From assembly GCA_943788195.1 (NCBI GenBank), contig CALSPH010000001.1:59673-123672 (forward strand): a DNA stretch of 64,000 nt, written 5' to 3'. A program made the position numbers and the translations under genes. This document shows positions 9,893 through 63,724 of this stretch, piece by piece; position 1 is the first letter of the stretch, and each line of letters opens with the position of its first letter. Origin of the DNA: an uncultured Bacteroidia bacterium. Lineage in GTDB: Bacteria > Bacteroidota > Bacteroidia > NS11-12g > UBA955. The notes below the pieces were generated by a model. The model worked only from the letters and a program-made list of their open reading frames with translations, did not search any database and was not told the DNA's origin.

Positions 9893-10111
9893 TTACAAAT
9901 CCCAAACGCGCGTTCTAGCTTCGCGGTGGTATTTTCTAACATTCATCCAAAAAAGCAGTATGAGATAAATAAAAATCGGGCTGCCCAAGGTGAGAAATGA
10001 AGTATAAATGAAATAAAGTCGAATGCGCTGTGAAGAAACATTTAATTTCTCTGCAACTCGCTGGCAAACACCATACAGACTAGAATTCAATATCCATTTA
10101 TTCATTGGCAC
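9893..10111 (-). CDS. small membrane protein with a PspC domain
   Basis: LYGVCQRVAEKLNVSSQRIRLYFIYTSFLTLGSPIFIYLILLF follows the PspC-domain pattern (GVCgGlA...vRl.fv). It is 72 aa. Confidence 0.45.
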   Translation of the reverse strand: MPMNKWILNSSLYGVCQRVAEKLNVSSQRIRLYFIYTSFLTLGSPIFIYLILLFWMNVRKYHREARTRVWDL

Positions 10112-29556: not shown

Positions 29557-29693
29557 AAATCGCCTTTTTCAAGCAATATTTGTGGCTGCAATCTATTGTT
29601 ATTGGGTGCATATAATTTGAATTATTAAATAGAATTAAAGCTTGCAAAAAATCACATTCATTTTTGCATTTGATTACGTATTTTTGCCCACCT

Positions 29694-30954
29694 ATGTCAT
29701 ACCTATTTACATCCGAGTCTGTTTCAGAAGGGCACCCAGATAAAGTTTCAGATCAAATAAGTGATGCACTGATTGATCATTTTCTCGCTTTTGATAAAGA
29801 AAGCAAGGTAGCCTGCGAAACGTTAGTGACTACCGGTCAAGTTGTACTAGCTGGTGAAGTAAAGTCTAAAGCGTATTTAGATGTTCAAAATATTGCCAGA
29901 GAAGTAATCAATCGAATTGGTTATACTAAATCTGAGTACATGTTTGAAGGAAATTCTTGTGGGGTTCTTTCTGCTATCCATGAGCAAAGTCCCGATATTA
30001 ATCAAGGCGTTGACAAGAAGAAAAAAGAAGAGCAAGGTGCCGGAGACCAAGGTATGATGTTTGGTTATGCTACCAATGAGACGGAAAATTTTATGCCTTT
30101 GGCGCTTGATCTCTCCCATAGACTGCTAAAAGAACTTGCTGTTCTGCGCAGAGAAGGCAAGAAAATTAAATACCTAAGACCTGATGCGAAAAGTCAGGTA
30201 ACGCTAGAATATGACGATGACAATAATCCAATTCGAATTGATGCAATTGTTATTTCAACTCAACATGATGATTTTGATACTGAGCCAAAAATGTTGGCCA
30301 AAATCAAGAAGGACATGGTTGAAATTCTTATCCCTCGGGTTAAGAAACAATTGCCAAAACGTATCCAAAATTTATTCAATGCGGATATAAAATACCACAT
30401 TAACCCTACCGGCAAATTTGTAATTGGTGGACCGCATGGAGATACTGGACTTACTGGAAGAAAGATCATTGTAGACACATACGGAGGTAAAGGAGCGCAT
30501 GGTGGTGGTGCCTTTAGTGGGAAAGACCCTAGTAAAGTCCGATCGAAGCGCAGCATATGCCACACGCCATATAGCAAAAAACTTAGTCGCAGCTGGTTTG
30601 TGCAAAGAAGTATTGGTTCAGGTGAGTTATGCAATTGGTGTTGCTGAACCTACCAGTATAAATGTAGATACGTACGGCACAGCAAATGTGGATATGACCG
30701 ACGGTGAAATTGGGAAAAAGGTTAAGGAATTATTTGATATGCGTCCGTACTTTATTGAAAAACGCTTAAAGTTAAGAACTCCAATGTACTCTGAAACTGC
30801 GGCTTATGGCCATATGGGACGTGTAAACGAAACGGTAACCAAAGAATTTGAAAGCCCAGAAGGCAAGAAGGTTAAACTTCAAGTTGAACTCTTTACGTGG
30901 GAAAAATTAGACTACGTCATTAAAGTAAAAAAAGCGTTTAAGCTTAAGGGGTAA
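29694..30954 (+). CDS. metK: S-adenosylmethionine synthetase, interrupted in this sequence by an apparent +1 insertion near 30538-30541
   Basis: [24 protein letters not shown]...[38 protein letters not shown] matches MetK. After GKDPSKV the conserved continuation DRSAAYAARHIAKN... appears in the +1 frame (ORF 30499-30954). The GTCC there is consistent with one extra C. Confidence 0.85.
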
Positions 30955-34253: not shown

Positions 34254-34318
34254 GGTTATGGGATAAGAAATGTAACTCCGGACTCATATTAGTATATTTC
34301 TCTGTATCAATAACTTCT

Positions 34319-34636
34319 ACAAAACTATGGGAATCCAATTATTCGGATTACCAACAGTATTTGTACGACAGAATTAAGGGTTTTATTGAGAATTCTGTAA
34401 CCCCTATTGGTTATCGTCGTATTTCAAAAATCTTCAATGATGAGGGGTTAAAAACACCTCGTGGTACTTCATTCACAAACTCCAAAGTACATTCTATGTA
34501 CAAAAAGGGGTTGATTCGGGAAGAAAGAATGAATCGTGAAGATATAGTTGAGGTATCTCCTGTTACTATTGAATTGATAATACACCCAATTTTAGGTAGG
34601 ATACGTCGTAGTCCCTATGAGAAGAGATTTACCTAA
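34319..34636 (+). pseudogene. remnant of a large serine recombinase/resolvase (internal 'recombinase' domain fragment only)
   Basis: YQQYLYDRIKGFIENSVTPIGYRRISKIFNDEGLKTPRGTSFTNSKVHSMYKKGL matches the ...IA.xLNexGixTPRG..W..stV..IL segment of serine recombinases. There is no catalytic N-terminal domain, and the open frame begins inside the glmS 3' end. Confidence 0.5.
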
Positions 34637-35312
34637 AAACTCTAACCACCTTCAACCACTTCAATACTCGTTTGAACATCTCTCAGAAAATAAATTGAGA
34701 AATACTGTGATATTTTAGTCGTTTAATGTTTCAGAACCATATTTATAGATAACCTAAGTGTTCCAATCATAGGGTTCAAACACTTTTACCCCTTTATCCA
34801 ACAACTCACATCGGGGAGGGAAAGGATTAGGGAGAAGTCGGTTAGTAATCTGTAGGATTGAAATAATATCCGAACATAACGGATGAGGTTTCACCGATAG
34901 GGTTAAAAATGGTTATGGTATAAGATAGATATGGGGGATTCAAACTGACTGGTCTAATCGAAATCTATAACTGAAGAATGAGTTCATTCATTAACAGATA
35001 CTCAAATCTGTAAGGGGTTTGGTGTATCTAATTGATAACAGGTTATTAAATAATAACTGGAATGTTGAGGATTCACACTACGTATGAATCACTCAACGAT
35101 GAGATGATTCTGATGAAATCAGAACCACTCATCATAGGATGTTTAAATACTGAAAGATAAAGGAGTTAATATGAAACAAACACAAGAACAATTACATAAT
35201 GAACTAATGGATAAACTTAGTGAGTTGTATACCGTCAGCAAAAAGTGCACTAATTAGGTTAATTATTTAATATAGAGGTTTTAATAAATTTATAACCTTA
35301 AAAGAAATCTAA

Positions 35313-35660
35313 ATGACGAACAAAAAAAGCACAAGTTCATTAATCAGTGACTTAAAACGAAAGACAAGAAAGAAGTATTCATCAGAAGAAAAGATCCGCA
35401 TTATTATCCAAGGCATTCGGGGAGAGGACTCCATAGCGGAGTTATGCAGAAAAGAAGGCATAAGCCAGACCAACTATTACAAATGGAGTAAGGACTTCAT
35501 GGAAGCAGGAAAACGCAGATTAGCAGGCGATACAATGCGTGAGGCTAATACTTCTGAAGTTCAAGAGCTCAAAGGAGAGAACCATTGCTTGAAGGAGCTT
35601 GTAGCTGAACTCTCCTTAGAGGTGAGAACTTTGAAAAAAAACGTAAATGGAGACGACTAG
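35313..35660 (+). CDS. IS3-family transposase OrfA (HTH/leucine-zipper DNA-binding part)
   Basis: 115 aa and basic, with an HTH (IAELCRKEGISQTNYYKWSKDF) and a coiled-coil tail. Confidence 0.8.
   Translation: MTNKKSTSSLISDLKRKTRKKYSSEEKIRIIIQGIRGEDSIAELCRKEGISQTNYYKWSKDFMEAGKRRLAGDTMREANTSEVQELKGENHCLKELVAELSLEVRTLKKNVNGDD
35636..35642 (+). promoter_or_regulatory. programmed -1 ribosomal frameshift heptamer A_AAA_AAC at the orfA/orfB overlap
   Basis: The heptamer is correctly phased X_XXY_YYZ in the orfA frame. orfB (35675-36649) lies in the -1 frame. Translation after the slip reads ...KKRKWRRLVKKKYMHYSQ into OrfB. Confidence 0.6.
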
Positions 35661-35674
35661 TAAAGAAGAAGTAT

Positions 35675-36649
35675 ATGCATTACAGTCAGCAAGAAAAATA
35701 CGAGTTGATTCAACTTGTAGAACAATCCGATTTAGGGGTTATCCGAACCTTAAGGGAACTCAAAATTAATAAAACTACCTTCTACAACTGGTACAGCGCT
35801 TACAGCAAACAGGGCTATGAAGGTCTTGCGCGCAAGCCCAGTAAAAGACAAGGTTCATGGAACAGGATTAATGAATTAGACCGTGATAAGGTAGTTGAGA
35901 TAGCCTTAGAGAAGCCAGAACTGTCTCCTAGAGAAGTCGCTTGGTACATTACTGATACCTATAGCTATTATATCAGTGAGTCGAGTGTATATCGTATCCT
36001 AAAAAGCAATGGACTTATCTCCGTTCCATCTTTTAGAATAATGAGTGCCTCAGACAGTTTTCATGATAAAACAACACAGGTCAATCAAATGTGGCAGACT
36101 GACTTCACTTACTTCAAAATCTATGGTTGGGGGTGGTATTACCTCTCAACAGTACTGGACGATTACTCTAGGTTTATTGTTAACTGGAAGTTGTGCTCAA
36201 CCATGAAGGCAGAAGATGTTAAGAATACCTTGGATGAGGCAATATTGGCTACCGAAGTACCTGAGAGTAACAGACCTAGGCTTTTATCAGATAACGGATC
36301 TTGTTATATATCCCATGAGCTTGCAGCGTACCTTCAAGTAAAAAAGATGAAACATGTTAGAGGTAGACCCTTGCATCCTCAGACCCAAGGCAAAATAGAG
36401 CGTTATCACAGATCCATGAAAAATGTGGTAAAACTAGACAACTATTTTAGTCCTGAACAACTGGAAAGAAAACTAAAAGAGTTTGTGGAGTATTACAACT
36501 ATAAACGATACCATGAATCCTTACAAAACCTAACGCCTGCTGAGGTCTATTATGGAAAAGGGCAACTCAAACTCAAACAAAGAAATCAAACCAAAATCAA
36601 AACATTAAAAGCTAGAAAAAAACAGTATCATAAATTTAACCTAAATTAG
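35675..36649 (+). CDS. IS3-family transposase OrfB (DDE/RNase-H-like integrase catalytic domain)
   Basis: WQTDFTYF...LSDNGSCYIS...YHESLQNLTPAEVY shows D, D(35)E spacing and the conserved K/R typical of the rve integrase core. Confidence 0.85.
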   Translation: MHYSQQEKYELIQLVEQSDLGVIRTLRELKINKTTFYNWYSAYSKQGYEGLARKPSKRQGSWNRINELDRDKVVEIALEKPELSPREVAWYITDTYSYYISESSVYRILKSNGLISVPSFRIMSASDSFHDKTTQVNQMWQTDFTYFKIYGWGWYYLSTVLDDYSRFIVNWKLCSTMKAEDVKNTLDEAILATEVPESNRPRLLSDNGSCYISHELAAYLQVKKMKHVRGRPLHPQTQGKIERYHRSMKNVVKLDNYFSPEQLERKLKEFVEYYNYKRYHESLQNLTPAEVYYGKGQLKLKQRNQTKIKTLKARKKQYHKFNLN

Positions 36650-36768
36650 CACCAACTCTATCTTACGTTTTTAACTCAAAAGTGCAAATTTCGCTGAAGA
36701 CATACACAGAACCCGAGTTTGAGTTTATAAGTAGAAATTATATATTTACAAAGTTAATTCGAACAAAA

Positions 36769-37246
36769 ATGAAAAACTTAATAATTTTTTCTTTATTCGT
36801 CCTATCAAGTTGTGGCAATAAAATAGATAACAATCAGGCTCAATCGACTGAAGTAAAAAAACTATAGTCAACCACTATTACAGAATGAATACTTAGGAAA
36901 CTATCACGGAATTCAGCCAAGTTACATTATGAAAAATCAATATGGTGACGACATGATAATTGGCGGTCAAAAGGTTTCAGTTCCTTCCATTGATTTTAAG
37001 TTTCTACTAAAAGAGGATGGCATTGCTGGTTTGCAACAAACAAACCTTGATGATATTAGCAGAGTTTATTATAATGGCACTCTAAAAATACTTAATGAAG
37101 ATGTCAATTCAGTATCTGTGGAATGCTCGCTAAGCGATGGTGAATATTCTAAACCTAAATACACTTTAAAAATAAATAAATCAGATAAAACTGCTGTTTG
37201 CAAGGGAGCAAATGAACCTGAATTCAGCATAAAGAAACAACACTAA
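36769..37246 (+). pseudogene. small lipoprotein split by a frameshift inside an A7 homopolymer (36854-36860)
   Basis: The signal and lipobox MKNLIIFSLFVLSSCG ends at a stop at 36865-36867. The ORF 36929-37246 stays open upstream to 36857 in another frame. Removing one A joins them into a single ~159-aa lipoprotein. Confidence 0.45.
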
Positions 37247-37261
37247 AAACTGACGCAAATA

Positions 37262-38633
37262 ATGAAAAAAGTAATATCAAATATAAGTTTCATAATAATT
37301 GTTATAATTTTAGGTGCAACATTAAATGGTTGTAATAATCGAGAGACTAATCATCCTTTTAAATCAAAGGAAAATAAAGACCTTTTAAATCTCCCCAGCA
37401 TCACCTCAGAGCATCCCCTTTTTCAGCTTAGGATTGACTCTCTTATAAATATTAAAAGTGACACGGGTGTAATAAGCTTTAAATCCGAACTTAACTTTTT
37501 CCAAAGTGGATTCCCTCTCTACTCTCTTGACACAACAAATACACTTGAAGGGCTTTCGCGTATATACGTTTATGAGGATAACAGACTTGACTCTATAATC
37601 ATTCATCACAAATCTGGTAAAGTATTTGAAAACGTACTATATGCTTCTCAAAAATTAATAGTTACAACAGTTGGCAGTCCTCAGGGGTATGTTTTTGAAC
37701 CAGAAACCGAAGAGTATTCTTATATTCATTCTGTAGAATTTTGCTTACAACACATTGATAAAAATCTCAATTTGTCAACGGAAATATTTATCACAGATAA
37801 ATATTTTGATGGTGACAGACAAAATCCTTATTCTAACAAAGATTATTTATTTAATAACCTACCTGAATTCAATGATTTAGAGCAATTAACAAATATTGAT
37901 AATTCTAAAATTATTGATTATGCAGCAAATCATGGGGGGGGAATATTTCTATGATAGAGAATCTAATTCATATAAAAAACAACCATATAATATCAGAAAT
38001 CTTGTGCTCGAAAAAGCTACAGACAGTGTTCTCGTATTTAGAACATTAGATTATAATTACCTGACGGGGGAAGATTTCAGGAAAAGAAAAAACATATCGA
38101 TGGAATTTGCATGGAATGCATCTGCACCTGCTTGGATTGAGAGGTTCCCAGAAGATATAAGTACTACAGATATTATATTAGAATATCCTCAAGGGGCCAG
38201 CAATATGGAAGCTTACGAAAATCAACATATAAAAAAAACTGAAACTGAAATAGATTTAACAGTAGATGTAAAAGTTTATCAATCAAGTATTATAGATAGA
38301 TATAAATCTTGGATTAGTTGGAAAGAAAGAGAAAGAGAAAGAGAAAAAAGACGACAAGAAATAAACGATAATAGTAATAACTCAAATAAGTCTTCAACGA
38401 GTAACAACATAGATGGACGGTATTCTTATGAAGACCAGACTTCTACATATAGATTAACAGTTTCAAATGGAAGATGGAGTTACAGTACAGCTATAAAAAT
38501 ATCTGGAGTCGCTCAAACAGATTATTCTTCAGGAACAGAACGAAATGGAGTGTTATACAAGGGAGGAGCAAGTGTAGGAAACGTAAATGGAAATTGCGCT
38601 CAAGTAGGAAGTAGTCCACAGATGTGTAAGTAA
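37262..38633 (+). pseudogene. lipoprotein of ~457 aa split into 230-aa and 245-aa ORFs at a G8 homopolymer (37934-37941)
   Basis: The N-terminal part carries signal and lipobox LGATLNGC. The frames switch exactly at the poly-G run. The C-terminal part contains a KEREREREKRRQE tract encoded by (GAAAGA)n and an Asn/Ser-rich region. Confidence 0.45.
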
Positions 38634-38836
38634 AAAAAACATATCCCCAAGAAGGCATTAGAATTACTCTTAAAACTATCTGAATTTGCTTTACCTAAGC
38701 TCAGAGCTATAGAGGTTAATAATGAGTCAGAGGAGGCTAAGCATACCTCATTAGATATTAATATAATTGATACTGGGGTGCCTTTTGCGAGTTGTGAGGC
38801 GGATGTGGTTGATTAACCTTCCATTTATTAGCATCT

Positions 38837-39920
38837 TTATATTTTAAGCACCCTAAAGTGCTGTTTAAATTCATCTCCGATGCTGATGAAATACATTCCA
38901 TCTGGCAGACCTTTTAGATTTATTTCTGTGTCTTCTCCTTCAATCACATCAGACAATACTTCTACTCCTGCGCTAGTGTATATTGTAATGTTTTGTCGTA
39001 TTAAGTTAGTTGATGCTTTAATACGTATTCTACTTGTAGTAGGATTGGGATAAATCGTAAACTCAATATTAGGATACTTATAAATACTGGCACTATTACT
39101 TGTATCCACCAATGTCGGCATCCAAGTCAAGCCAATACTATCACCCCACAGATATTCAGCTAATTCAGGATGGTCAATAAAAGGATTGCGGTTGTGCTGG
39201 TAAAAGCTATCGATGATGTTATTCCTATTACGTTCCCAGTTGCTAACTGTATCAATCCTATTCCAATGAAGGAGAGTGATTTAAGCGAGCTTGTAAGGGA
39301 CTTTGGTCAGCATTATTAAGTAATGTATTAGTCAACTCTAAATCAGGCTCAGAGCCTTCTCCTTCGTATCTGACAGCCATATAAAATATCATTCTAGCTA
39401 CATCTCCTTTGACTGCGTCAGGTGGTTCAAATGTCCATAAATCAGCATCACGTTTAGACCCTGTATTAAAGCCATTATCTATTACATCTACACAAGTAAT
39501 GCAAGTGTCAAAATTTCTATTATTCCTTGTGGAGTTGACACTAACATCGCAAGGTCTTAGGTGATGTACATCTGTTCCTGCACCATTGCTTGTACCAAAG
39601 TCTCCTCTAGATTTTGCCCAAACGTGTTCCCGACTCCAGCCAGCAGCACTGTTGTATTCTTGTGCAGCATCTACACTTCTCCCTGAATATAGTAGGATTA
39701 CATTATTTGCATTTGCTGTATCTCTATCCGTATGCTTTAGTATGTCCCACACATCTGTCGATGATGAGGTATAAGGGAACTCTGTATGATTTTTGATTAT
39801 TTGGTTCAGTTCATACTTCAATGAATCATCAGACTTTTTATGAGCAGATAGATAGTAAGTACTGTCCTGTGCAGAAAGCAGGTTTGAGATAAGGAGTAAA
39901 GCGAATACAATAAATTTCAA
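38837..39920 (-). pseudogene. secreted endonuclease I-family DNase with a T9SS type-A C-terminal sorting domain, disrupted by a frameshift near 39283-39310
   Basis: The upstream ORF (39258-39920) has a signal peptide and EndA/NucM motifs (EHVWAKSRG, DVHHLRPCDVSVNSTRNNRNFD, MIFYMAVRYEG). The domain continues in another frame (TLLHWNRIDTVSNWERNRNNIIDSFYQHNRNPFIDHPELAEYLWG) and runs into a Por_Secre_tail CTD that ends VLKI. Confidence 0.65.
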
Positions 39921-40015
39921 GATGTAAATATATTATTAAATCTATTCTATTACCAATTGACTAGCTGACTAAACGAATTTAAACCCTAAAAGATTACACT
40001 AATATCCAAAGATGG

Positions 40016-40540
40016 GTGTTTAAATTTTCACCATTTGTGGAATCAAACATGAACAAACGGAAGAATGTAGTTGGTAATAGTTGGAGAATGGACGAGACCT
40101 ACATCAAGGTAGCAGGTAAGGACAGATACTTATATCGAGCTGTAGATAAGCAAGGAAATACGGTTGACTTCCTGCTAACTAAACGGAGAATGAAGGGGTC
40201 AGCACAGAAGTTTCTGAACAAAGCCATAGGCAACAATGGAAAACCAAGACTGATCAATATTGATAAAAGTGGAGCAAATACACAGGCCATACGTATTGTG
40301 AATCAATATAGCTTGACCTTCAAGAAAATCAGAATCAGGCGAGTTAAGTATTTAAACAATATTGTTGAGCAAGACCATCGGACGATTAAACGACGGATAG
40401 CAATAACTACAGGATTCAAGGAGTTCGAATCCGCTCAAAGAACACTAGCAGGAATAGAAATCATAAACATCATTAGAAAGAATCAAATAGTAAATCCGAG
40501 GAGAAGTTGGTTTGCAACCTTTAAGTCTTTGGCTGCTTAA
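40016..40540 (+). pseudogene. IS6-family (IS26-like) transposase remnant; the N-terminal ~60 aa are missing
   Basis: WRMDETYIKVAGKDRYLYRAVDKQGNTVDFLLTKRR...INIDKSGANTQA...EQDHRTIKRR aligns with the IS6/IS26 Tnp DDE core. No IS6 inverted repeats were identified. Confidence 0.65.
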
Positions 40541-40947
40541 TGAAATGATAAATCAGCTACTTTTGGAAACCAATGGGATTAATGCGACAGAACCAAAAAA
40601 CTTTCCTTTGTGTGAAATTAAAATCCATTGCAGACAAGTATCAAACAAAGTTAACTAGACCAGCTTTTTTTAATAAAGACTTTAACTTAAAGTGGTGATG
40701 CGCCAAGTTCCTCGAAATCTTCACGTTTAATCGAATTGATAATGGATAAATCATTTACTTTTAGTAAAACTGACCTAACTCCATTGCCGTTTTTATTGTT
40801 GATGGTAAAATACAATTTGAGTTTAGATTTGGTTTGTTTGATTTTCTCTGGAGGTAATTTTGTATACCGTCAGCAAAAAGTGCACTAATTAGGTTAATTA
40901 TTTAATATAGAGGTTTTAATAAATTTATAACCTTAAAAGAAATCTAA

Positions 40948-41295
40948 ATGACGAACAAAAAAAGCACAAGTTCATTAATCAGTGACTTAAAACGAAAGAC
41001 AAGAAAGAAGTATTCATCAGAAGAAAAGATCCGCATTATTATCCAAGGCATTCGGGGAGAGGACTCCATAGCGGAGTTATGCAGAAAAGAAGGCATAAGC
41101 CAGACCAACTATTACAAATGGAGTAAGGACTTCATGGAAGCAGGAAAACGCAGATTAGCAGGCGATACAATGCGTGAGGCTAATACTTCTGAAGTTCAAG
41201 AGCTCAAAGGAGAGAACCATTGCTTGAAGGAGCTTGTAGCTGAACTCTCCTTAGAGGTGAGAACTTTGAAAAAAAACGTAAATGGAGACGACTAG
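40948..41295 (+). CDS. IS3-family transposase OrfA (copy 2)
   Basis: Identical to the 35313-35660 protein. Confidence 0.8.
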   Translation: MTNKKSTSSLISDLKRKTRKKYSSEEKIRIIIQGIRGEDSIAELCRKEGISQTNYYKWSKDFMEAGKRRLAGDTMREANTSEVQELKGENHCLKELVAELSLEVRTLKKNVNGDD

Positions 41296-41309
41296 TAAAG
41301 AAGAAGTAT

Positions 41310-42284
41310 ATGCATTACAGTCAGCAAGAAAAATACGAGTTGATTCAACTTGTAGAACAATCCGATTTAGGGGTTATCCGAACCTTAAGGGAACTCAAAA
41401 TTAATAAAACTACCTTCTACAACTGGTACAGCGCTTACAGCAAACAGGGCTATGAAGGTCTTGCGCGCAAGCCCAGTAAAAGACAAGGTTCATGGAACAG
41501 GATTAATGAATTAGACCGTGATAAGGTAGTTGAGATAGCCTTAGAGAAGCCAGAACTGTCTCCTAGAGAAGTCGCTTGGTACATTACTGATACCTATAGC
41601 TATTATATCAGTGAGTCGAGTGTATATCGTATCCTAAAAAGCAATGGACTTATCTCCGTTCCATCTTTTAGAATAATGAGTGCCTCAGACAGTTTTCATG
41701 ATAAAACAACACAGGTCAATCAAATGTGGCAGACTGACTTCACTTACTTCAAAATCTATGGTTGGGGGTGGTATTACCTCTCAACAGTACTGGACGATTA
41801 CTCTAGGTTTATTGTTAACTGGAAGTTGTGCTCAACCATGAAGGCAGAAGATGTTAAGAATACCTTGGATGAGGCAATATTGGCTACCGAAGTACCTGAG
41901 AGTAACAGACCTAGGCTTTTATCAGATAACGGATCTTGTTATATATCCCATGAGCTTGCAGCGTACCTTCAAGTAAAAAAGATGAAACATGTTAGAGGTA
42001 GACCCTTGCATCCTCAGACCCAAGGCAAAATAGAGCGTTATCACAGATCCATGAAAAATGTGGTAAAACTAGACAACTATTTTAGTCCTGAACAACTGGA
42101 AAGAAAACTAAAAGAGTTTGTGGAGTATTACAACTATAAACGATACCATGAATCCTTACAAAACCTAACGCCTGCTGAGGTCTATTATGGAAAAGGGCAA
42201 CTCAAACTCAAACAAAGAAATCAAACCAAAATCAAAACATTAAAAGCTAGAAAAAAACAGTATCATAAATTTAACCTAAATTAG
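41310..42284 (+). CDS. IS3-family transposase OrfB (copy 2)
   Basis: Identical to the 35675-36649 protein. Confidence 0.85.
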   Translation: MHYSQQEKYELIQLVEQSDLGVIRTLRELKINKTTFYNWYSAYSKQGYEGLARKPSKRQGSWNRINELDRDKVVEIALEKPELSPREVAWYITDTYSYYISESSVYRILKSNGLISVPSFRIMSASDSFHDKTTQVNQMWQTDFTYFKIYGWGWYYLSTVLDDYSRFIVNWKLCSTMKAEDVKNTLDEAILATEVPESNRPRLLSDNGSCYISHELAAYLQVKKMKHVRGRPLHPQTQGKIERYHRSMKNVVKLDNYFSPEQLERKLKEFVEYYNYKRYHESLQNLTPAEVYYGKGQLKLKQRNQTKIKTLKARKKQYHKFNLN

Positions 42285-42342
42285 CACCAACTCTATCTTA
42301 CGTTTTTAACTCAAAAGTGCAAATTTCGCTGAAGACATACAC

Positions 42343-42819
42343 TCTGGTGATCAAAATGATTATGTTGCTGTTTCCATGGAACACTGGGGGACGAATTTAA
42401 ATCGTTATATCAACAAAAAAACTACCATCGGCTTAGCTATAGAGTCTGTTGAAGACAGTACCAAAATGAACATTAAGGTTTTTGTACGCGGGAATGGGTT
42501 TGACAACTCTAAATCCTATAAATTGACCGTTTATATTATTGAGGACAATATTAGTACAGACAATCAAGTTGGAAAACCAGCAGGTTTCAAACATCAAATG
42601 GTGTTAAGAGGCAGTCTTACCAATGCGATTGGGGACGACATTAAGTTAAAAGAAAATGTGACCTTGGAAAAGGAATACTCGTTTAGTTTAAGCGGTTCCT
42701 TTGTTGTAGACAACCTAAAAATATTGGCCTTTGTAAATACAGTTGGTGGAACAACATCTGATCGATTAATTCATAACGCACAACAAGTAAAGGCAGGTAA
42801 AACAGCTAATTGGGATTAA
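42343..42819 (+). pseudogene. C-terminal portion of an Omp28-related outer-membrane lipoprotein, truncated at its 5' end by IS3 copy 2
   Basis: The reading frame is open right from the IS boundary (SGDQNDYVAVSMEHWG...). LTVYIIEDNI...HQMVLRG resembles the Omp28 family. No signal peptide or start remains. Confidence 0.4.
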
Positions 42820-50992: not shown

Positions 50993-51430
50993 ATGAATCA
51001 AGAGAGAGGTTTAGACGAGTTTAGCGTTTGTATACTTGAATCAAAAAGTCCAATTCTGGTTGAGGATTGTATCGCCATCAAACTAGACGGAGCATCCATT
51101 TCAACCATTCAAGAATTGCATGACGGACTTAAAGGTCCACTAAAATTTCCAGGTGATTACGCACACAGTTTAGATGCATTGTTTGATGTGCTAATTGATC
51201 TCGCTTGGCTAAACCGAAGACCCGTTCATTTAATAATAAACAATTTTGATTACCTGCTTGAGGCAGAATCTGCAGAACGAAAAATCCAAGGAATACTAAC
51301 CTTAATTGATGCTGGGAGAACATGGCTGCAATTAACCCAACAATCTGAGCTATTTCAAATCTCTGTAAAACAAAGCAATCATATTAAACCGATGCTTGAG
51401 ACCTGCGAAGTGCCGTATGTTACGATTTAG
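50993..51430 (+). CDS. barstar-like ribonuclease-inhibitor (immunity) protein
   Basis: LDGASISTIQELHDGLKGPLKFPGDYAHSLDALFDVLIDLAW follows the barstar pattern (LDG..I.s...lh..L...L.fP.YYG.NLDAL.DcL). No adjacent nuclease gene is present. Confidence 0.5.
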   Translation: MNQERGLDEFSVCILESKSPILVEDCIAIKLDGASISTIQELHDGLKGPLKFPGDYAHSLDALFDVLIDLAWLNRRPVHLIINNFDYLLEAESAERKIQGILTLIDAGRTWLQLTQQSELFQISVKQSNHIKPMLETCEVPYVTI

Positions 51431-56827: not shown

Positions 56828-59197
56828 ATGCTCATCATGGTATTAAAACAGCATATGAAGAAAGCTCTTAAAGATTTAAGTCTCGATCCAAGATACTATC
56901 AAATTGGTTTTCAAGGCATTTTCTTGGCGTTTGGAATAGCCATCTTAGGTTGGCAAACTGAATGGCAACGGGTGGGCGTTTACTTAGTGGTATGTCTAGT
57001 GACACAACTGCTCGTAAATATTTATACCAAGCAAAGCTTACACAGTTTAAAAAGTGCATTCATAACTGCTTTGGGCCTTGGACTACTTTTAAATACGTGT
57101 AACTTATGGATTGCAGCGCTTGCCGCTGTCATTGCTATAACTAGTAAATCACTGATACGGTTTAATGGTAAACACATCTTTAATCCTGGCAATTTGGGTA
57201 TCATGGCAGTGGTGCTACTCACCAATCAAGCATGGATTTCTCCAGGACAATGGGGCAGTCATTCACTTTTCCCGATTGGTATCATAGGAGCTGGTCTCAT
57301 TATCTTAAGCAAAGTAAAGCGGGTTGAAACGGGTTTTGTGTTCTATGGTGTTTTAATTGGGCTGGAGCTTATTCGTCAACATTTCTATCTGGGATGGCCG
57401 CTTGATTTTTGGTGGCATCGTGTGAGCAATGGCTCCATATTGGTTTATGCCCTATTTATGATTACTGATCCCAAAACTACACCTAGTCATCGAACTGCAC
57501 GTATGACATGGGCAGCTATTCTTGCCCTCTTTACTTTCATGCTTGGTTGCGGGATGCAATTATATGCTGCCCCCATTTATGCCTTATTATTTATTAGCCC
57601 ATTTACTCCGTTGTTTGATCGTATTTGGAAAGCCAAGAAATACAATTGGACGGTTGGAGACACGATTAACGCAGCAAAAGAAAAAATAAAAACAAAACAT
57701 ATTATGAGAAAAGAAATGATTAAACCTCTGCTATTGCTATTGGCAATGCTGGTTGTAGGCTCGCAAATGAGTGCCTTTTGCGGCTTCTATGTGGCCAAAG
57801 CCAGTGCGAGTATTTTTAACAAAAAAAGTCAAGTGATTTTAGTTCATGATGGGGATCGAACCACCATTACTATGCAAAACAATTTTAAAGGAAGCCTTAA
57901 AGAATTTGCCATGGTGATACCTGTACCGGTTGTACTCAAAAAAGATGATATCACTATTAAGGAGAATTCACTTTTTGCTAACCTTGACGCATATTCAGCA
58001 CCACGCTTAGTCGAATACCACGATCGCAACCCTTGCTATCAACCTGTATACCGGGGCAATCGGATAATGGCGGAAAATGCATCGGTTCAAATGCTCAAAG
58101 GAAAGAACCTCGATTATGTCAAGAAAGTGGAGCGTAAAGTGAAAATTGAAGCCAAGTACAGCATTGATGAATATGATATTATCATTCTCTCTGCTAAGGA
58201 AAGTTGGGCATTGGAAGCATGGCTTAGAATGAATGGATATAGTTTGCCTGAAAATGCAAAGGAAGTTTTAACTCCATATATCAAAGATAAAATGAAATTC
58301 TTCGCAGTAAAGATAAATCTAGAAAAAGCGAAGAACCTTCCCAAAGGAACATTGCGTCCTATTCAAATCAAATTTAAGAGTGATAAGTTTATGTTGCCTA
58401 TCCGGCTTGGAATGGCCAATGCCAATGGTGAAGACCAAGATTTAATCATCTATGCGTTTACACGCACTGGAAGAGTAGAAACTGCCAATTACCGAACGGT
58501 GGAAATGCCTACTGCGCGTAAAATTCCCACATTCATTAAGCAAGATTATGGCAACTTCTATAAAGAAATGTTTGATCGAAAATATCGAAATGAAGGAAGA
58601 AATGCAGTTTTTTTGGAATACGCATGGAATGTTTCACCCACATGGGGTGTCAAATGTGATCCATGTGTAGGTACGCCACCAGTTGTAAAAGATTTATCAG
58701 ATGCAGGTGTTCATTGGGTAGACCCCGATGCCAACTACAGTTTTGGCAGAACGGCAGTGAATGTATTTTTCACACGTATGCATGTAAGATACAGCCGCGA
58801 TCGTTTTCCTAGCGACCTAACCTTTATTGAAACCCCAAATAAAAAACATTATCAAGTAAGGCAAATCATCACTAATCCAGCCAGAGGAACATTTGATTGT
58901 GATCAAGGATTGGCTTACCTAAAGAAATTAAAAAACAGACGAATTGTGGAGCTGCATGAAATGGAGGCCCTTACGGGTCGAAATTCTGAGGAATACCCTT
59001 ACTATGTGGAATTGGGTTCTGGCAAAAAGAAACCCATTGCAAAACAGCAAAACAATCCGATTCAGGAAAATGTCCTACCTGTTGGCATTGGAAATAATGG
59101 GCAACCTCCATTTTGGCTACTCCCCTTTAGCATTATCAGCATCATATTGCTCATGCAATTGATTAAATGGGCTTCACGTAAACACTTAAAAATATGA
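56828..59197 (+). CDS. fusion protein: an N-terminal RnfD/NqrB-like polytopic membrane domain (~290 aa) joined in frame to a secreted Cys/His-rich module of unknown function (paralog A, starting at about 57704)
   Basis: GKHIFNPGNLGIMAVVLL and FMITDPKTTPSHRTARMTWAAILA parallel the RnfD FNPAMIGYVVLL and FFILTDPVT...R motifs. The module then begins with its own signal-like segment MRKEMIKPLLLLLAMLVVGSQMSAFCGFYVAKA and ends in a C-terminal TM anchor. Confidence 0.45.
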   Translation: MLIMVLKQHMKKALKDLSLDPRYYQIGFQGIFLAFGIAILGWQTEWQRVGVYLVVCLVTQLLVNIYTKQSLHSLKSAFITALGLGLLLNTCNLWIAALAAVIAITSKSLIRFNGKHIFNPGNLGIMAVVLLTNQAWISPGQWGSHSLFPIGIIGAGLIILSKVKRVETGFVFYGVLIGLELIRQHFYLGWPLDFWWHRVSNGSILVYALFMITDPKTTPSHRTARMTWAAILALFTFMLGCGMQLYAAPIYALLFISPFTPLFDRIWKAKKYNWTVGDTINAAKEKIKTKHIMRKEMIKPLLLLLAMLVVGSQMSAFCGFYVAKASASIFNKKSQVILVHDGDRTTITMQNNFKGSLKEFAMVIPVPVVLKKDDITIKENSLFANLDAYSAPRLVEYHDRNPCYQPVYRGNRIMAENASVQMLKGKNLDYVKKVERKVKIEAKYSIDEYDIIILSAKESWALEAWLRMNGYSLPENAKEVLTPYIKDKMKFFAVKINLEKAKNLPKGTLRPIQIKFKSDKFMLPIRLGMANANGEDQDLIIYAFTRTGRVETANYRTVEMPTARKIPTFIKQDYGNFYKEMFDRKYRNEGRNAVFLEYAWNVSPTWGVKCDPCVGTPPVVKDLSDAGVHWVDPDANYSFGRTAVNVFFTRMHVRYSRDRFPSDLTFIETPNKKHYQVRQIITNPARGTFDCDQGLAYLKKLKNRRIVELHEMEALTGRNSEEYPYYVELGSGKKKPIAKQQNNPIQENVLPVGIGNNGQPPFWLLPFSIISIILLMQLIKWASRKHLKI

Positions 59198-60693
59198 AAA
59201 ACAAGATCTATAAATTAACCTTAACATGTGTTGGCTTAGTCTATTTAGCCACCCAATCTTTTGCCTTTTGTGGCTTCTATGTCGCAAAAGCCGGGGCTAA
59301 CATTTTCAACAAGAAAAGCCAAGTAATCTTGGTTCATGATGGCGATCGAACAACCATCACCATGCAAAATGATTTTAAGGGCGACTTAAAAGAATTTGCC
59401 ATGGTTATTCCTGTACCCGTGGTGCTCAAAAGAGACGATATAACCATAAAAGAGAATTCCCTCTTCGATAATTTGGATGCGTATTCCTCACCACGGTTGG
59501 TGGAATACCATGATCGAAATCCATGTTATCGACCGCGGTATGATAATTATTCCAGATCAGTAGATAAGGTAATGCTTATGTCCAGCATGGAGGTTGAGGA
59601 TGATATCGCATTTGATGAAGTAAGAAAAAAAGTGAAAATTGAGGCAAAATATAGCATCGATGAATATGATATCATTATACTTTCTGCCAAAGAAAGTTGG
59701 GCTCTTGAGGCTTGGCTAAAGCAAAACGGATACAGTTTACCAGAAAACGCCAAGGAAGTTTTGACGCCTTACATCAAAGATAAAATGAAATTCTTTGCAG
59801 TTAAGATTAACTTAGAAAAAGCGAAGAATCTTGCAAAAGGGAAATTGCGTCCCATTCAGATCAAATTTAAAAGTGATAAGTTTATGTTGCCTATTCGCCT
59901 TGGAATGGCCAATGCTAATGGCGAAGACCAAGATTTAATTATCTATGCGTTTACACGTACCGGTAGAGTAGAAACGGCCAATTACAGAACGGTTGAAATG
60001 CCAACTGCTCGCAAAATTCCCACATTCATTAAGCAAGACTATGGCAATTTCTATAAAGAAATGTTCGATCGAAAATATCGAAACGAAGGTAGAAATGCGG
60101 TGTTCTTGGAATATGCTTGGAACGTTTCACCCACTTGGAATGGCATTAAATGTGACCCATGTGTAGGAACTCCCCCTGTTGTTACCGATTTATCCAATGC
60201 AGGAATTCATTGGGTAGACCCAAATGAGGATTATAGTTTTGGACGCACAAAAGTAGAAGTATTTTTTACCCGATTACACGTGCGTTATAGCAGGAGCCGG
60301 TTCCCCAGTGATTTAACCTTTATTGAGACCCCCAATAAAATGAATTATCAAGTAAGGCAAATCATCACCAACCCTGCAAGTGGAACCTTCGATTGTGATA
60401 AAGGGTTAGCTTATTTAAAGAAACTAAAAAATAGACGCATTGTAGAGCTACATGAAATGGAGGCTCTAACTGGAAGAAATTCTGAAGAATACCCTTACTA
60501 TGTAGAATTGGGTTCTGGCAAGAAGAAACCCATTGTTAGGCAGCAAAATAATTCTAATAATAAGCAAGAAAATGCAATTCCCATCAGTACAATAGGGAAT
60601 CAAAAGCCGCCTCCCTTTTGGATACTACCTCTTTGTGTTTTGGGATTAATACTTGTATTACAGATTCCCAAATGGATTACCTCCAAGAGTTAA
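59194..60693 (+). CDS. paralog B of the secreted, membrane-anchored Cys/His-rich module (unknown function)
   Basis: About 80-85% aa identity to residues ~297-789 of the upstream ORF. Shared motifs are AFCGFYVAKAxANIFNKKSQVILVHDGDRTTITMQN, YHDRNPCY and CDPCVGTPPVV. It has an N-terminal signal and a C-terminal TM, and its ATGA overlaps the upstream stop. Confidence 0.45.
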   Translation: MKNKIYKLTLTCVGLVYLATQSFAFCGFYVAKAGANIFNKKSQVILVHDGDRTTITMQNDFKGDLKEFAMVIPVPVVLKRDDITIKENSLFDNLDAYSSPRLVEYHDRNPCYRPRYDNYSRSVDKVMLMSSMEVEDDIAFDEVRKKVKIEAKYSIDEYDIIILSAKESWALEAWLKQNGYSLPENAKEVLTPYIKDKMKFFAVKINLEKAKNLAKGKLRPIQIKFKSDKFMLPIRLGMANANGEDQDLIIYAFTRTGRVETANYRTVEMPTARKIPTFIKQDYGNFYKEMFDRKYRNEGRNAVFLEYAWNVSPTWNGIKCDPCVGTPPVVTDLSNAGIHWVDPNEDYSFGRTKVEVFFTRLHVRYSRSRFPSDLTFIETPNKMNYQVRQIITNPASGTFDCDKGLAYLKKLKNRRIVELHEMEALTGRNSEEYPYYVELGSGKKKPIVRQQNNSNNKQENAIPISTIGNQKPPPFWILPLCVLGLILVLQIPKWITSKS

Positions 60694-60814: not shown

Positions 60815-61642
60815 ATGAAAACCTACATAAAAGCCGCCTTGCTCAGTTCGCTTATCTTTTTTGTTGCAATCAGTTCATGTAAAAAAGAAGTTGAATCAAA
60901 TGAAGACACAACGAAAAACACAACTGAATTACATGGCGCATTCGATGCTTTCGATTCAGATAACTTCACCATTTATAAGCAGGGCACTGAGTATGTCCTA
61001 GAAACCAAGGGTTTACCAAATCATACTTCTCCATATTGGTCCAATACAACTGCACGATCTTCAACTGGCCCGATGGGAGGTACATTAACAACTCCTGCAG
61101 CGACTCAAAACCATTCTTTGTTTGTAGAACCAACCACCACTTCACACAGTAATATGGCACCTGGCAACATTGACGATTTTAATGGGTCATATACCCTTAG
61201 GGTACCAGTTAGTCCCAGTAAAGCGAGTAGCACAAGTTCCACAGGTCTTGGGGCAATAGGTTTTGCAATAAGCGGATCAGTAATTTACAATGATGAGGAA
61301 GGGCCCAATGTGCCTTTAGACAATGCAATAGGTTCATTGGATTACACCGGAGCACATACGGGTCCACAAAGTTATCATTACCACCTTGAACCAAAAGCAT
61401 GGTCCAATGATGATGAGAAATTAATCGGAATTATATCAGATGGATTCTTCTTATACGGCAGAAAATGCAATTCAACGGGCACCTACCCAACTGACTTAGA
61501 CGCTTCAGGAGGGCACACTTCAACCACACAACATGTAGGTTCAAGCGAATATCATTATCATATACAAAACGACCTATATTTGAACAAATATTACATCCTT
61601 TTTCCAGGAGATTATCAAGGAGCGCCCAATTCAATACAATAG
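60815..61642 (+). CDS. YHYH-motif lipoprotein
   Basis: Lipobox ISSCKKE and two YHYH motifs (SYHYHLEP, EYHYHIQND) of the YHYH-protein family. Confidence 0.5.
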   Translation: MKTYIKAALLSSLIFFVAISSCKKEVESNEDTTKNTTELHGAFDAFDSDNFTIYKQGTEYVLETKGLPNHTSPYWSNTTARSSTGPMGGTLTTPAATQNHSLFVEPTTTSHSNMAPGNIDDFNGSYTLRVPVSPSKASSTSSTGLGAIGFAISGSVIYNDEEGPNVPLDNAIGSLDYTGAHTGPQSYHYHLEPKAWSNDDEKLIGIISDGFFLYGRKCNSTGTYPTDLDASGGHTSTTQHVGSSEYHYHIQNDLYLNKYYILFPGDYQGAPNSIQ

Positions 61643-61650
61643 AGCAGATT

Positions 61651-61932
61651 ATGAAAAACACAACTATTTATATTTTGGGATTAAGCTTAGCCCTAATTTC
61701 ATGTTCGGGCAACGCTCAAAACCCCAAAACAGATCCTCCCAAAAGACCAAGTGTAGAACAGATATTTAAGGACTTAGATACAAACAAGGACGGTAAAATT
61801 TCCAAAACAGAAGCGAAAGGACCATTAAAAGATGATTTCGCCAAAATCGATTTGAATAAGGATGGATATATTACTAAAGCAGAGTTGAAAAAAGCACCTA
61901 AACCGAAAGGACCTAAACCTCCTCATAAATAA
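61651..61932 (+). CDS. secreted EF-hand calcium-binding protein
   Basis: A signal and lipobox (LISCSG) plus two canonical EF-hand loops (DTNKDGKISKTE, DLNKDGYITKAE). Confidence 0.65.
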   Translation: MKNTTIYILGLSLALISCSGNAQNPKTDPPKRPSVEQIFKDLDTNKDGKISKTEAKGPLKDDFAKIDLNKDGYITKAELKKAPKPKGPKPPHK

Positions 61933-62519
61933 TGCGGAGAATACTGTTACTACTTCTGCTATTTTTGTTTGTGGTTGCTAGTTGCAACAACGCTGGCAGC
62001 ACATTGGATATCTCAAGTCAAAATGTAATTCATGATGATTCACTTGTTCTAAATACATCCAATGGAACATTTACTTACCGTGGGGGGTTGTATACAGGCC
62101 AATCGATTTCGCACAATTCCTCGGGTTCCATTTCTCGAACTATCGATTATAAATTCGGTAAAAAGAATGGGTGTTTAACGATGTTTTATCCCAATGGGGC
62201 AATTTCATATCAGGCCAATTATCTCAATGGAAAACTAGATGGGGCTATAGCAAGTTGGTGGAAAAATGGAAATAAACGGTCTGAAAGCTTTTATAGGGAA
62301 GGAAAAGTACACGGTGTTCAAAAGCAATGGTATTCGAGTGGTGAACTATTTAAAGTACTCCGATTTAATGAAGGCATAGAGAATGGATTGCAAACGGCCT
62401 GGAGAAAAAATGGTACGATTTACACCAATTATGAGGCAAAAAACGGCCGCATTTTTGGATTAAAAAAAGCAACACTTTGTTATACCTTAGAAGATGAAGA
62501 AATTCAATTTAGTAATTAG
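61932..62519 (+). CDS. lipoprotein with MORN/YwqK-like repeats
   Basis: Lipobox VVASCNN and a repeated YxNGxxxxxxxYxxGKxxG pattern. Confidence 0.45.
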   Translation: MRRILLLLLLFLFVVASCNNAGSTLDISSQNVIHDDSLVLNTSNGTFTYRGGLYTGQSISHNSSGSISRTIDYKFGKKNGCLTMFYPNGAISYQANYLNGKLDGAIASWWKNGNKRSESFYREGKVHGVQKQWYSSGELFKVLRFNEGIENGLQTAWRKNGTIYTNYEAKNGRIFGLKKATLCYTLEDEEIQFSN

Positions 62520-63156
62520 TATTTGCAGCCTGCTTTTTGCGCATTGCACAACAGACCAACCAAGCAGCAGAGTGGAACAACTCCCCTACTACAAAGATGC
62601 AAGTTTCACACCACATTGGATCAGTGATTTGCCTGATAGTGTTGCCACATTTCATAAAATACCTTCATTTCAACTCGTCAACCAACATGGCCAGAATATA
62701 TCGAATGAAGTAGTTTCAGGGAAAATTTATGTGGCAGACTTTTTCTTCACTACTTGTCCGGGCATTTGCCCAAAAATGACACTCAATATGAAAATATTAC
62801 AAGAAGAGTTCAGACAAGACTCCACTATTTTACTCCTTTCTCATTCCGTTACACCAGAAATTGACTCAGTAGCCCAATTAGCCAAGTACGCAAAAAAGCA
62901 TGGCATCAATTCGCCGAATTGGCATTTACTTACAGGAAATAGAAAAGAAATATACAATTTGGGCAGAAATACTTATTTCATCGAAGAAGACTTAGGTGTG
63001 GAAAAGACAGATGAAGATTTTCTTCATACCGAAAATTTTGTCCTTATCGATCAGCAAGGGCACATTAGAGGCATTTTTAACGGTCTTAACAAGACATCTA
63101 TCGCCCAGCTTATTGCAGATATTTACACCTTAAAAAAGGGCAATTCAGCACAATAA
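62494..63156 (+). CDS. SCO1/SenC-family thioredoxin-like copper chaperone
   Basis: CPGICP motif (FFFTTCPGICPKM) and a downstream conserved His (LSHSVTPEIDS). Confidence 0.75.
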   Translation: MKKFNLVISICSLLFAHCTTDQPSSRVEQLPYYKDASFTPHWISDLPDSVATFHKIPSFQLVNQHGQNISNEVVSGKIYVADFFFTTCPGICPKMTLNMKILQEEFRQDSTILLLSHSVTPEIDSVAQLAKYAKKHGINSPNWHLLTGNRKEIYNLGRNTYFIEEDLGVEKTDEDFLHTENFVLIDQQGHIRGIFNGLNKTSIAQLIADIYTLKKGNSAQ

Positions 63157-63193
63157 AGAAGAAAAAGATACCTTTGACCAAGCATTATAAAAT

Positions 63194-63724
63194 TTGCAAA
63201 AGAAAGAGGAATTTATAACGATCTATGAGAGCCATAAGGATTTAGTCTATAATGTTTGTCTCAACTATTTACAAAATAAAGAAGAGGCTGAGGAGGTCTT
63301 TCAAGATGTTTTTCTGAAAGTACATGCCAAGCTGAATGATTTCAACCAACAATCTTCTTATAAAACATGGATATATCGAATCTGTATTAATAAGTGTATT
63401 GATTACTTACGTGCTAAGAATAGGAAAAAACGTTTCGCATTCTTACAAAGCTTGAGTAATAGCAAATTGGAAATCCACTCTAACTTCAGTCATCCTGGCG
63501 TTTTGATGGAAGACAAAGAATCTATGCGCATTTTGTTTGGCCACATTAACAGTTTACCCGAAAAGCAAAAAACTGCCATAGTTTTAAAGAGTATAGAAGG
63601 ATTAAGTCAAAAAGAAATTGCTCAAATACTGACTACTACAGAAAAAGCCGTTGAATCCCTTTTATCACGGGCAAGGAAAAAACTAAAAGAAAAAATTGAA
63701 TCATCGAAGGATGATAAAGAATAA
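63194..63724 (+). CDS. ECF-subfamily RNA polymerase sigma-70 factor
   Basis: Region 2 (VFQDVFLKVHAKL...YKTWIYRICINKCIDYLR) and region 4 (LSQKEIAQILTTTEKAVESLLSRARKKL). Confidence 0.8.
   Translation: MQKKEEFITIYESHKDLVYNVCLNYLQNKEEAEEVFQDVFLKVHAKLNDFNQQSSYKTWIYRICINKCIDYLRAKNRKKRFAFLQSLSNSKLEIHSNFSHPGVLMEDKESMRILFGHINSLPEKQKTAIVLKSIEGLSQKEIAQILTTTEKAVESLLSRARKKLKEKIESSKDDKE

Follow-up and report, generated by a model that had tools for sequence, protein, structure and literature searches.

An endonuclease I gene with a type IX sorting domain on an exchangeable island of an uncultured Bacteroidia bacterium, and the extra base in its reading frame

Contig CALSPH010000001.1 of an uncultured Bacteroidia bacterium contains, within the 64,000-nt stretch analysed here (hereafter the window), a minus-strand gene at 38837-39920 that encodes an endonuclease I domain joined to a C-terminal sorting domain for a type IX secretion system (T9SS). 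In this assembly the gene is interrupted by a single extra base. In our interpretation the locus is an unremarkable gene of the Bacteroidota, coding for a non-specific nuclease that is secreted, and is carried as accessory cargo on an island bounded by insertion sequences (IS); its frame break probably stems from an assembly error, and less probably from a true inactivation (probability of this reading, about 0.6). An earlier prediction made from the sequence alone had described the gene as either a recent pseudogene or the product of a sequencing error. That framing remains right, and it is now tilted towards error because the essential gene metK and the two cargo genes next to the nuclease gene also contain private insertions, and no signature of decay is seen.

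Architecture and predicted function of the nuclease gene

Two minus-strand open reading frames (ORFs) in different frames, 39258-39920 (220 aa) and 38837-39130 (97 aa), make up one gene, and removal of one base (the plus-strand G at 39278) restores a 360-aa ORF. Its features are the following.

38837-39920, minus strand: endonuclease I gene with T9SS C-terminal sorting domain; TTG start, 360 codons once the extra base is removed
39870-39920, minus strand: predicted Sec signal peptide (MKFIVFALLLISNLLSA / QD), read from the sequence; homologous N-termini are conserved
39164-39824, minus strand: Endonuclease_1 (PF04231) catalytic domain, residues 33-252; E98-H99 at 39624-39629 and N129 at 39534-39536
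38864-39055, minus strand: type-A T9SS C-terminal sorting domain, residues 289-352, with YPNP, LPxGxYF and terminal K-I motifs
39278, minus strand: extra base (G on the plus strand), shifting the frame after codon 213; not in a homopolymer
39258-39260, minus strand: premature stop produced by the frameshift, as read from the ORFs

Profile searches with the frame-corrected protein matched Endonuclease_1 (PF04231) over residues 33-252 and profile positions 4-235 of 235, at 136.5 bits (cut-off 25 bits; E=1.6e-39), which is far beyond chance. Residues 289-352 of 360, at the extreme C-terminus, matched Por_Secre_tail PF18962 (42.7 bits; cut-off 27; E=7e-11) as well as TIGR04183 (39.8 bits; cut-off 23; E=3.4e-10). 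The original prediction of an EndA/NucM-type DNase fused to a Por-type sorting domain is borne out by these matches. The N-terminus reads as a canonical-looking Sec signal peptide, and the TTG start codon is common to the window gene and the intact orthologues L005, L013 and L086.

An alignment of 41 homologues showed that E98-H99, R105, H119-H120, R122 and N129 are invariant. In Vvn, the endonuclease I of Vibrio vulnificus, the roles of the active-site residues have been described (PMC5758888): the beta-beta-alpha-metal site consists of Glu79-His80 (the acidic residue and the general-base His), the metal/phosphate-binding Asn127, and Arg99. A phmmer alignment to 1OUP pairs Vvn Asn127 with N129 of the window protein (chain index +18). 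E98-H99 would be the equivalent of Vvn Glu79-His80; the pairwise alignments stop short of that region, and for it a profile search and a sub-sequence search gave no alignment, the latter returning spurious ryanodine-receptor matches only. An AlphaFold2 model built with the 41 homologues had a mean predicted local distance difference test (pLDDT) score of 74.5, with low values at residues 88-131. The best PDB matches of its nuclease part in Foldseek were 2PU3, 2G7F, 2VND and 1OUP (E=8e-6 to 6e-4, TMt 0.43-0.57), and the model thus gives this part the endonuclease I fold, at moderate model confidence. The modelled C-terminal beta-sandwich superposes on 8GLK_D, the C-terminal domain (CTD) of Flavobacterium johnsoniae NucA in its translocon-bound state (Foldseek, TMt 0.79), and the sorting-domain region also aligns in sequence to the CTD of 8GLJ_D.

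The architecture of a T9SS-exported endonuclease I is widespread, not unusual, and already characterised experimentally. A protein search returned >6,800 significant homologues, and most of the top 120 of these as listed share the two-domain layout at ~350-362 aa. Their hosts are Crocinitomicaceae, Flavobacteriales, Salibacteraceae and other Bacteroidota metagenome-assembled genomes (MAGs), and many of the proteins are named 'endonuclease I'. The nearest proteins to the window allele are 96% identical, as is the nearest DNA; protein and DNA searches found no intact allele identical to that of the window.

Two T9SS nucleases are close in design. NucA (Fjoh_4723), a T9SS substrate of F. johnsoniae, has been caught in vivo within the SprA/PorV translocon, and a model of it in that position exists (PMC10994853). 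It shares with the window gene the layout of signal sequence, nuclease and type-A CTD, and the family profile of the window gene matches 8GLK_D, a chain deposited as 'Endonuclease I'; of NucA, the structure 8GLK comprises the CTD only, so that this structural likeness concerns the CTD. Unlike NucA, the window gene lies on an IS-bounded island, is frame-broken in the assembly and belongs to a small-genome (about 1.8 Mb) marine Bacteroidia lineage. The second is EndoI of Riemerella anatipestifer (AS87_RS02625), which is transported by the T9SS and has Mg2+-dependent DNase activity as well as RNase activity (PMC12398890, a review citing Shen et al. 2023). We liken the two by description: both are T9SS endonucleases I, but the Riemerella enzyme is described as a virulence factor of a duck pathogen, whereas the window gene probably serves to scavenge nutrients.

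The catalytic family (PF04231) and the fold are also those of Vvn, the V. cholerae and V. salmonicida endonucleases I and Escherichia coli EndA. These proteobacterial enzymes differ in being ~210-235 aa long, periplasmic or secreted by other routes, and without a T9SS CTD, and their identity to the window protein is only ~20-25%. The window protein scored 28.5 bits with the NCBIfam EndA equivalog model, against a cut-off of 372, and is therefore not an EndA equivalog. Many genomes of Fictibacillus spp. (Bacillota; L049-L068, L073) have genes without a T9SS domain that are 53-55% identical to just the catalytic domain of the window protein (query residues ~17-258). By these alignments the nuclease domain appears to be shared across phyla.

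The architecture is already known, and analogy allows a mechanism to be proposed. Sec export would carry the nuclease to the periplasm, and the type-A CTD would be recognised by the PorV/SprA translocon of the T9SS, which would take the protein across the outer membrane, as for F. johnsoniae NucA. Outside the cell, the Vvn/EndA-type beta-beta-alpha-metal catalytic domain would cleave extracellular DNA or RNA in a metal-dependent, non-specific manner, and the role would presumably be nucleotide and phosphorus scavenging. Escape from neutrophil extracellular traps, also listed among the roles of such enzymes in the original prediction, is not relevant for an apparently marine, free-living Bacteroidia lineage.

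The extra base and its interpretation

At the break the minus strand reads TTAAAT-C-ACTCTC, compared with TTAAAT-ACTCTC in a nucleotide alignment of five intact orthologues. The break had been predicted near 39283-39310; it is a single-base break, and the insertion at 39278 lies 5 nt outside that range. Lost through the shift are the final ~40 residues of the nuclease domain along with the entire sorting domain. With them go residues that are invariant in the 41-homologue alignment, namely W219, D223, R232, N233 and the N243-R-N-P-F247 motif.

What remains is a 220-aa product with the signal peptide and E98-H99/N129. A functional break would mean either that programmed +1 ribosomal frameshifting restores the full protein or that the 220-aa product is a deliberate periplasmic form. 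The fully open downstream frame and the retained signal peptide and active-site residues are all that speaks for it. However, none of the orthologues and sister alleles examined has the extra base, inspection by eye around 39278 showed no +1 site of the slippery or stop-stimulated kind, and the truncation loses W219, D223, R232, N233, N243 and N245-P246-F247. We regard both forms of this explanation as extremely improbable because the feature is not conserved.

The coding sequence beyond the break shows no decay. The gene has no second stop or indel; the 147 codons downstream of the shift are free of both. Pairwise ratios of nonsynonymous to synonymous substitution rates (dN/dS) between the window gene and five orthologues were 0.08-0.13. 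Downstream of the shift they were 0.24-0.27, and between intact orthologues the same segment gave 0.12-0.24. Compared with five other alleles, the window copy has three private substitutions, all synonymous and none downstream of the shift. Judged from these substitutions, there is no sign of relaxed selection in the nuclease gene, and in the population the gene is intact and under purifying selection.

Sister contigs were found by exact-protein look-up with adjacent GlmS; they come from the same population and are ~99.9% identical to the window in core and flanks. The insertion at 39278 is missing from the five orthologues and from the sister contigs L086 and L083. Among the public metagenome contigs scanned, 20 had the intact version and 0 the insertion, and neither exact look-ups of the 220-aa and 97-aa products nor a cluster look-up found a carrier of the broken gene other than the source contig. 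L086 carries the island with an intact 360-aa nuclease gene and intact neighbours of 158 aa and 456 aa. In L083 another insertion, at the counterpart of 39616, shifts the frame of the nuclease gene, and many core genes on the L083 contig are broken; one-base frame breaks are therefore common artefacts in these assemblies. In L008 (CP121331.1, a 2.87-Mb MAG chromosome), TGG is changed to TGA at 10772-10774, between the nuclease domain and the sorting domain, which is either an independent disruption or an error in that MAG.

Compared with 5-8 sister contigs, the whole window has exactly four private indels, all of them single-base insertions, at 30539, 36855, 37934 and 39278. The three outside the nuclease gene lie as follows.

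30539, plus strand: private extra C splitting metK, a control observation, in this assembly only
36769-37246, plus strand: island cargo gene 1, lipoprotein-like (158 aa in L086), broken at 36855 by a private extra A that falls within an A7 run
37262-38633, plus strand: island cargo gene 2, without a family match (456 aa in L086), broken at 37934 by a private extra G that falls within a G8 run

The gene metK (S-adenosylmethionine synthetase, 29664-30954, plus strand) is split into ORFs of 327 aa and 151 aa. Its product is essential in free-living bacteria. Since MetK is intact (429 aa) in eight same-population sister assemblies and is essential, the extra C is probably, indeed almost certainly, a consensus error, and errors of this type therefore exist in this assembly. 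Cargo gene 1, whose lipoprotein-like signal is MKNLIIFSLFVLSSC, has four private substitutions downstream of its break, and all four are third-position synonymous changes in the original frame. Under neutrality a 4/4 outcome has a roughly estimated chance of ~0.25^4 = 0.004; the original frame was therefore being read during the accumulation of the changes.

Several observations weigh against an error. Three private indels fall in the 4.15-kb island interior and one in the ~54 kb of core, an enrichment with a Poisson estimate of ~7e-5. A uniform error rate cannot explain the island, so a local cause is needed; this could be poor or mixed read support at a strain-variable, multi-allelic locus, or equally the real loss of dispensable cargo. 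The insertion at 39278 lies outside any homopolymer, and the independent nonsense mutation of L008 implies that the gene can be lost in related lineages. As to the function of an intact gene, no T9SS core gene lies within the 64-kb window, and secretion, signal-peptide cleavage and nuclease activity are all predicted.

The alternative is thus a genuine, very recent pseudogene, in which all three genes of an unneeded island cargo were knocked out by real single-base insertions. The cell would then make at most the 220-aa fragment, with signal peptide and active-site strand kept, and no secreted enzyme would be made. We consider this reading less probable than an error, but a serious competitor. 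Beyond the clustering of the insertions and the TGA stop of the L008 orthologue, it is favoured by the A7 and G8 runs at two of the insertions, since such runs are also sites of frequent real slippage, by the private substitutions of the island copy itself, which mark a distinct lineage and not a chimeric consensus, and by the accessory nature of the locus, which some strains lack altogether. It is opposed by the 147 clean codons and the lack of any private substitution downstream of the nuclease shift, by the 4/4 synonymous changes of cargo gene 1 in its unbroken frame, by the likewise broken essential metK of the same assembly, and by the confinement of the insertion to one public contig among those searched. 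These results make an assembly error the preferred explanation of the break. Without read support, none of the four genes (the nuclease gene, both of its neighbours on the island, and metK) should be scored as a pseudogene, and if these breaks were counted as real, gene decay in a lineage with a small genome would be overestimated; beyond such annotation hygiene the significance is little.

An exchangeable island downstream of glmS

The island had been predicted to be IS-flanked, and it proved to have two identical IS3 copies and an IS6 remnant.

35225-36707, plus strand: IS3-family element copy 1, with orfA at 35313-35660 and orfB at 35675-36649
40860-42342, plus strand: IS3-family element copy 2, in direct orientation relative to copy 1
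40004-40600, plus strand: 5'-truncated IS6-family element, with a transposase ORF at 40016-40540 (DDE_Tnp_IS240, PF13610, E=1e-41)
34254-35224, no strand assigned: island-specific segment on the left side of IS3 copy 1, confined among sister contigs to those with the island
38650-38828, plus strand: 3' fragment of a small gene (~106 aa) oriented convergently to the nuclease gene; in relatives the nuclease gene is flanked by copies or fragments of this small gene
39921-39962, minus strand: 42-nt segment upstream of the nuclease gene, conserved in all close orthologues and presumed to contain its promoter

Over their 1483 bp the two IS3 copies are 100% identical, and the cargo between them measures 4.15 kb; in it cargo genes 1 and 2, the small-gene fragment, the nuclease gene and the IS6 remnant follow one another in this order. 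The IS6 transposase ORF lacks ~50 N-terminal residues compared with a full-length 223-aa homologue in L011. Two identical direct IS3 copies around cargo, with an IS6 remnant adjoining the nuclease gene, resemble composite (compound) transposons and the pseudo-compound transposons of the IS26/IS6 type. The island differs from a composite transposon in that no combination of the flanks (GTGAG/IS/AGAACC and GGTAATT/IS/TCTGGTG) shows a target-site duplication, be it for a single IS3 copy or for the two together, and in that it replaced other DNA instead of being a simple insertion. IS-mediated recombination in a hotspot fits the island as well as movement as a unit does.

Three haplotypes are present between glmS and the truncated omp28 (window 34254-42412).

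H1 (L079, L080): a large serine recombinase gene, no island
H2 (the window, L083, L084, L086): the island
H3 (L081, L082, L085): recombinase and resolvase genes, a restriction-endonuclease-like gene and several IS3 copies

In L079 and L080, 1.84 kb of other DNA with the serine recombinase gene stands in place of the island, and this is not a clean empty site. Going by these alignments, the island is a replacement in a hotspot and not a clean transposition, and the locus directly downstream of glmS is a hotspot of integration and rearrangement. Because sister contigs with ~99.9% identical flanks either lack or carry it, the island is accessory, exchangeable DNA. Horizontal acquisition, as the original prediction had suggested, therefore holds in the sense of an accessory segment that was recently exchanged, missing in L079 and L080 and carried by L083, L084 and L086. 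Composition gave no support for a foreign origin (GC content 0.376 in the gene, 0.378 in the window).

Exchange also takes place inside the island. The H2 stretch 38500-40500, with the nuclease gene and the IS6 remnant, diverges by ~4% between carriers, as against ~0.1-0.2% in the flanks, and this difference means that recombination is swapping the nuclease alleles as such. Several related genomes have two copies of the nuclease gene, often adjoining related IS3 or IS6 elements. The hypervariable, IS-rich locus downstream of glmS is a tidy example of a secreted nuclease as exchangeable cargo.

The homologous unit has similar limits in all close orthologues: its first position lies 42 nt upstream of the start (window 39962), its last at most ~8 nt from the stop codon. 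What lies beyond the 5' boundary varies. In L010, L011 and L032 (~9940-9958) it is an IS3-type terminal repeat ending in ...CTGACGGTATACA at the junction; in L012 (~9950-9965) a sequence like the IS3-type repeat lies 7 nt further in, 35 nt upstream of the start; in L001, L007 and L008 it is a truncated fragment of the small 106-aa gene. The window, L005, L006, L013 and L086 have a 'native' upstream stretch, which in the window is cut at 40003 by the IS6 remnant. The simplest reading would be survivorship: where IS are abundant and the surroundings rearrange, a junction would last only if it spares both the promoter and the complete ORF. The shared 5' boundary may reflect either selection that trims to a minimal promoter-plus-ORF unit or a preferred IS target.

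The small ~106-aa gene (MANNTGIKYGGRQKGTPNK...ELLLKLSEFALPKLRAIEV...) is multi-copy in relatives. Its neighbours there include excisionase-like (HTH_17) genes and others that resemble genes of mobile elements, and it borders the nuclease gene on one side or on both. Copies or fragments are found in L008 (8590-8910 and 13981-14301) and L007 (1306-1470 and 2616-2828). Family searches with cargo genes 1 and 2 and this small gene returned only a weak phrog_11043 match, for the small gene. A 170-bp segment is found downstream of the nuclease gene here and upstream of it in L001; a circular permutation or translocatable unit is not needed to explain this, the segment being the 3' part of the multi-copy small gene.

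Were all three island insertions real, the locus would show newly exchanged cargo genes, that of a secreted nuclease among them, decaying at nearly the same time in a single strain of a marine Bacteroidia population with small genomes. The nuclease gene would at the same time be a minimal promoter-to-stop module, repeatedly reshuffled by IS3 and IS6 within and between related genomes, often in two copies with mosaic alleles. We think this combined picture unlikely.

Other features of the window

Rfam and tRNA scans of the window returned nothing. The window opens inside a protein (3-473) whose counterpart in sister contigs is a 1365-aa PKD/CHU_C protein with a type-B CTD, which would be indirect support for T9SS machinery in this genome. 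At 50993-51430 on the plus strand, a 145-aa Barstar-family (PF01337) gene overlaps the end of an MMPL transporter gene; in passing, no barnase-like partner was noticed near it. The segments 57772-59056 and 59262-60552 are 79% identical, and sister contigs have neighbouring DUF2330 genes there, one of them also with an NQR2/RnfD-like region; on this similarity the pair is a diverged tandem duplication. Finally, in a comparison with five sister contigs, 60839-63584 has 15 window-private substitutions in 2.7 kb, against 0 in the preceding ~17 kb, and is probably a recombined tract.

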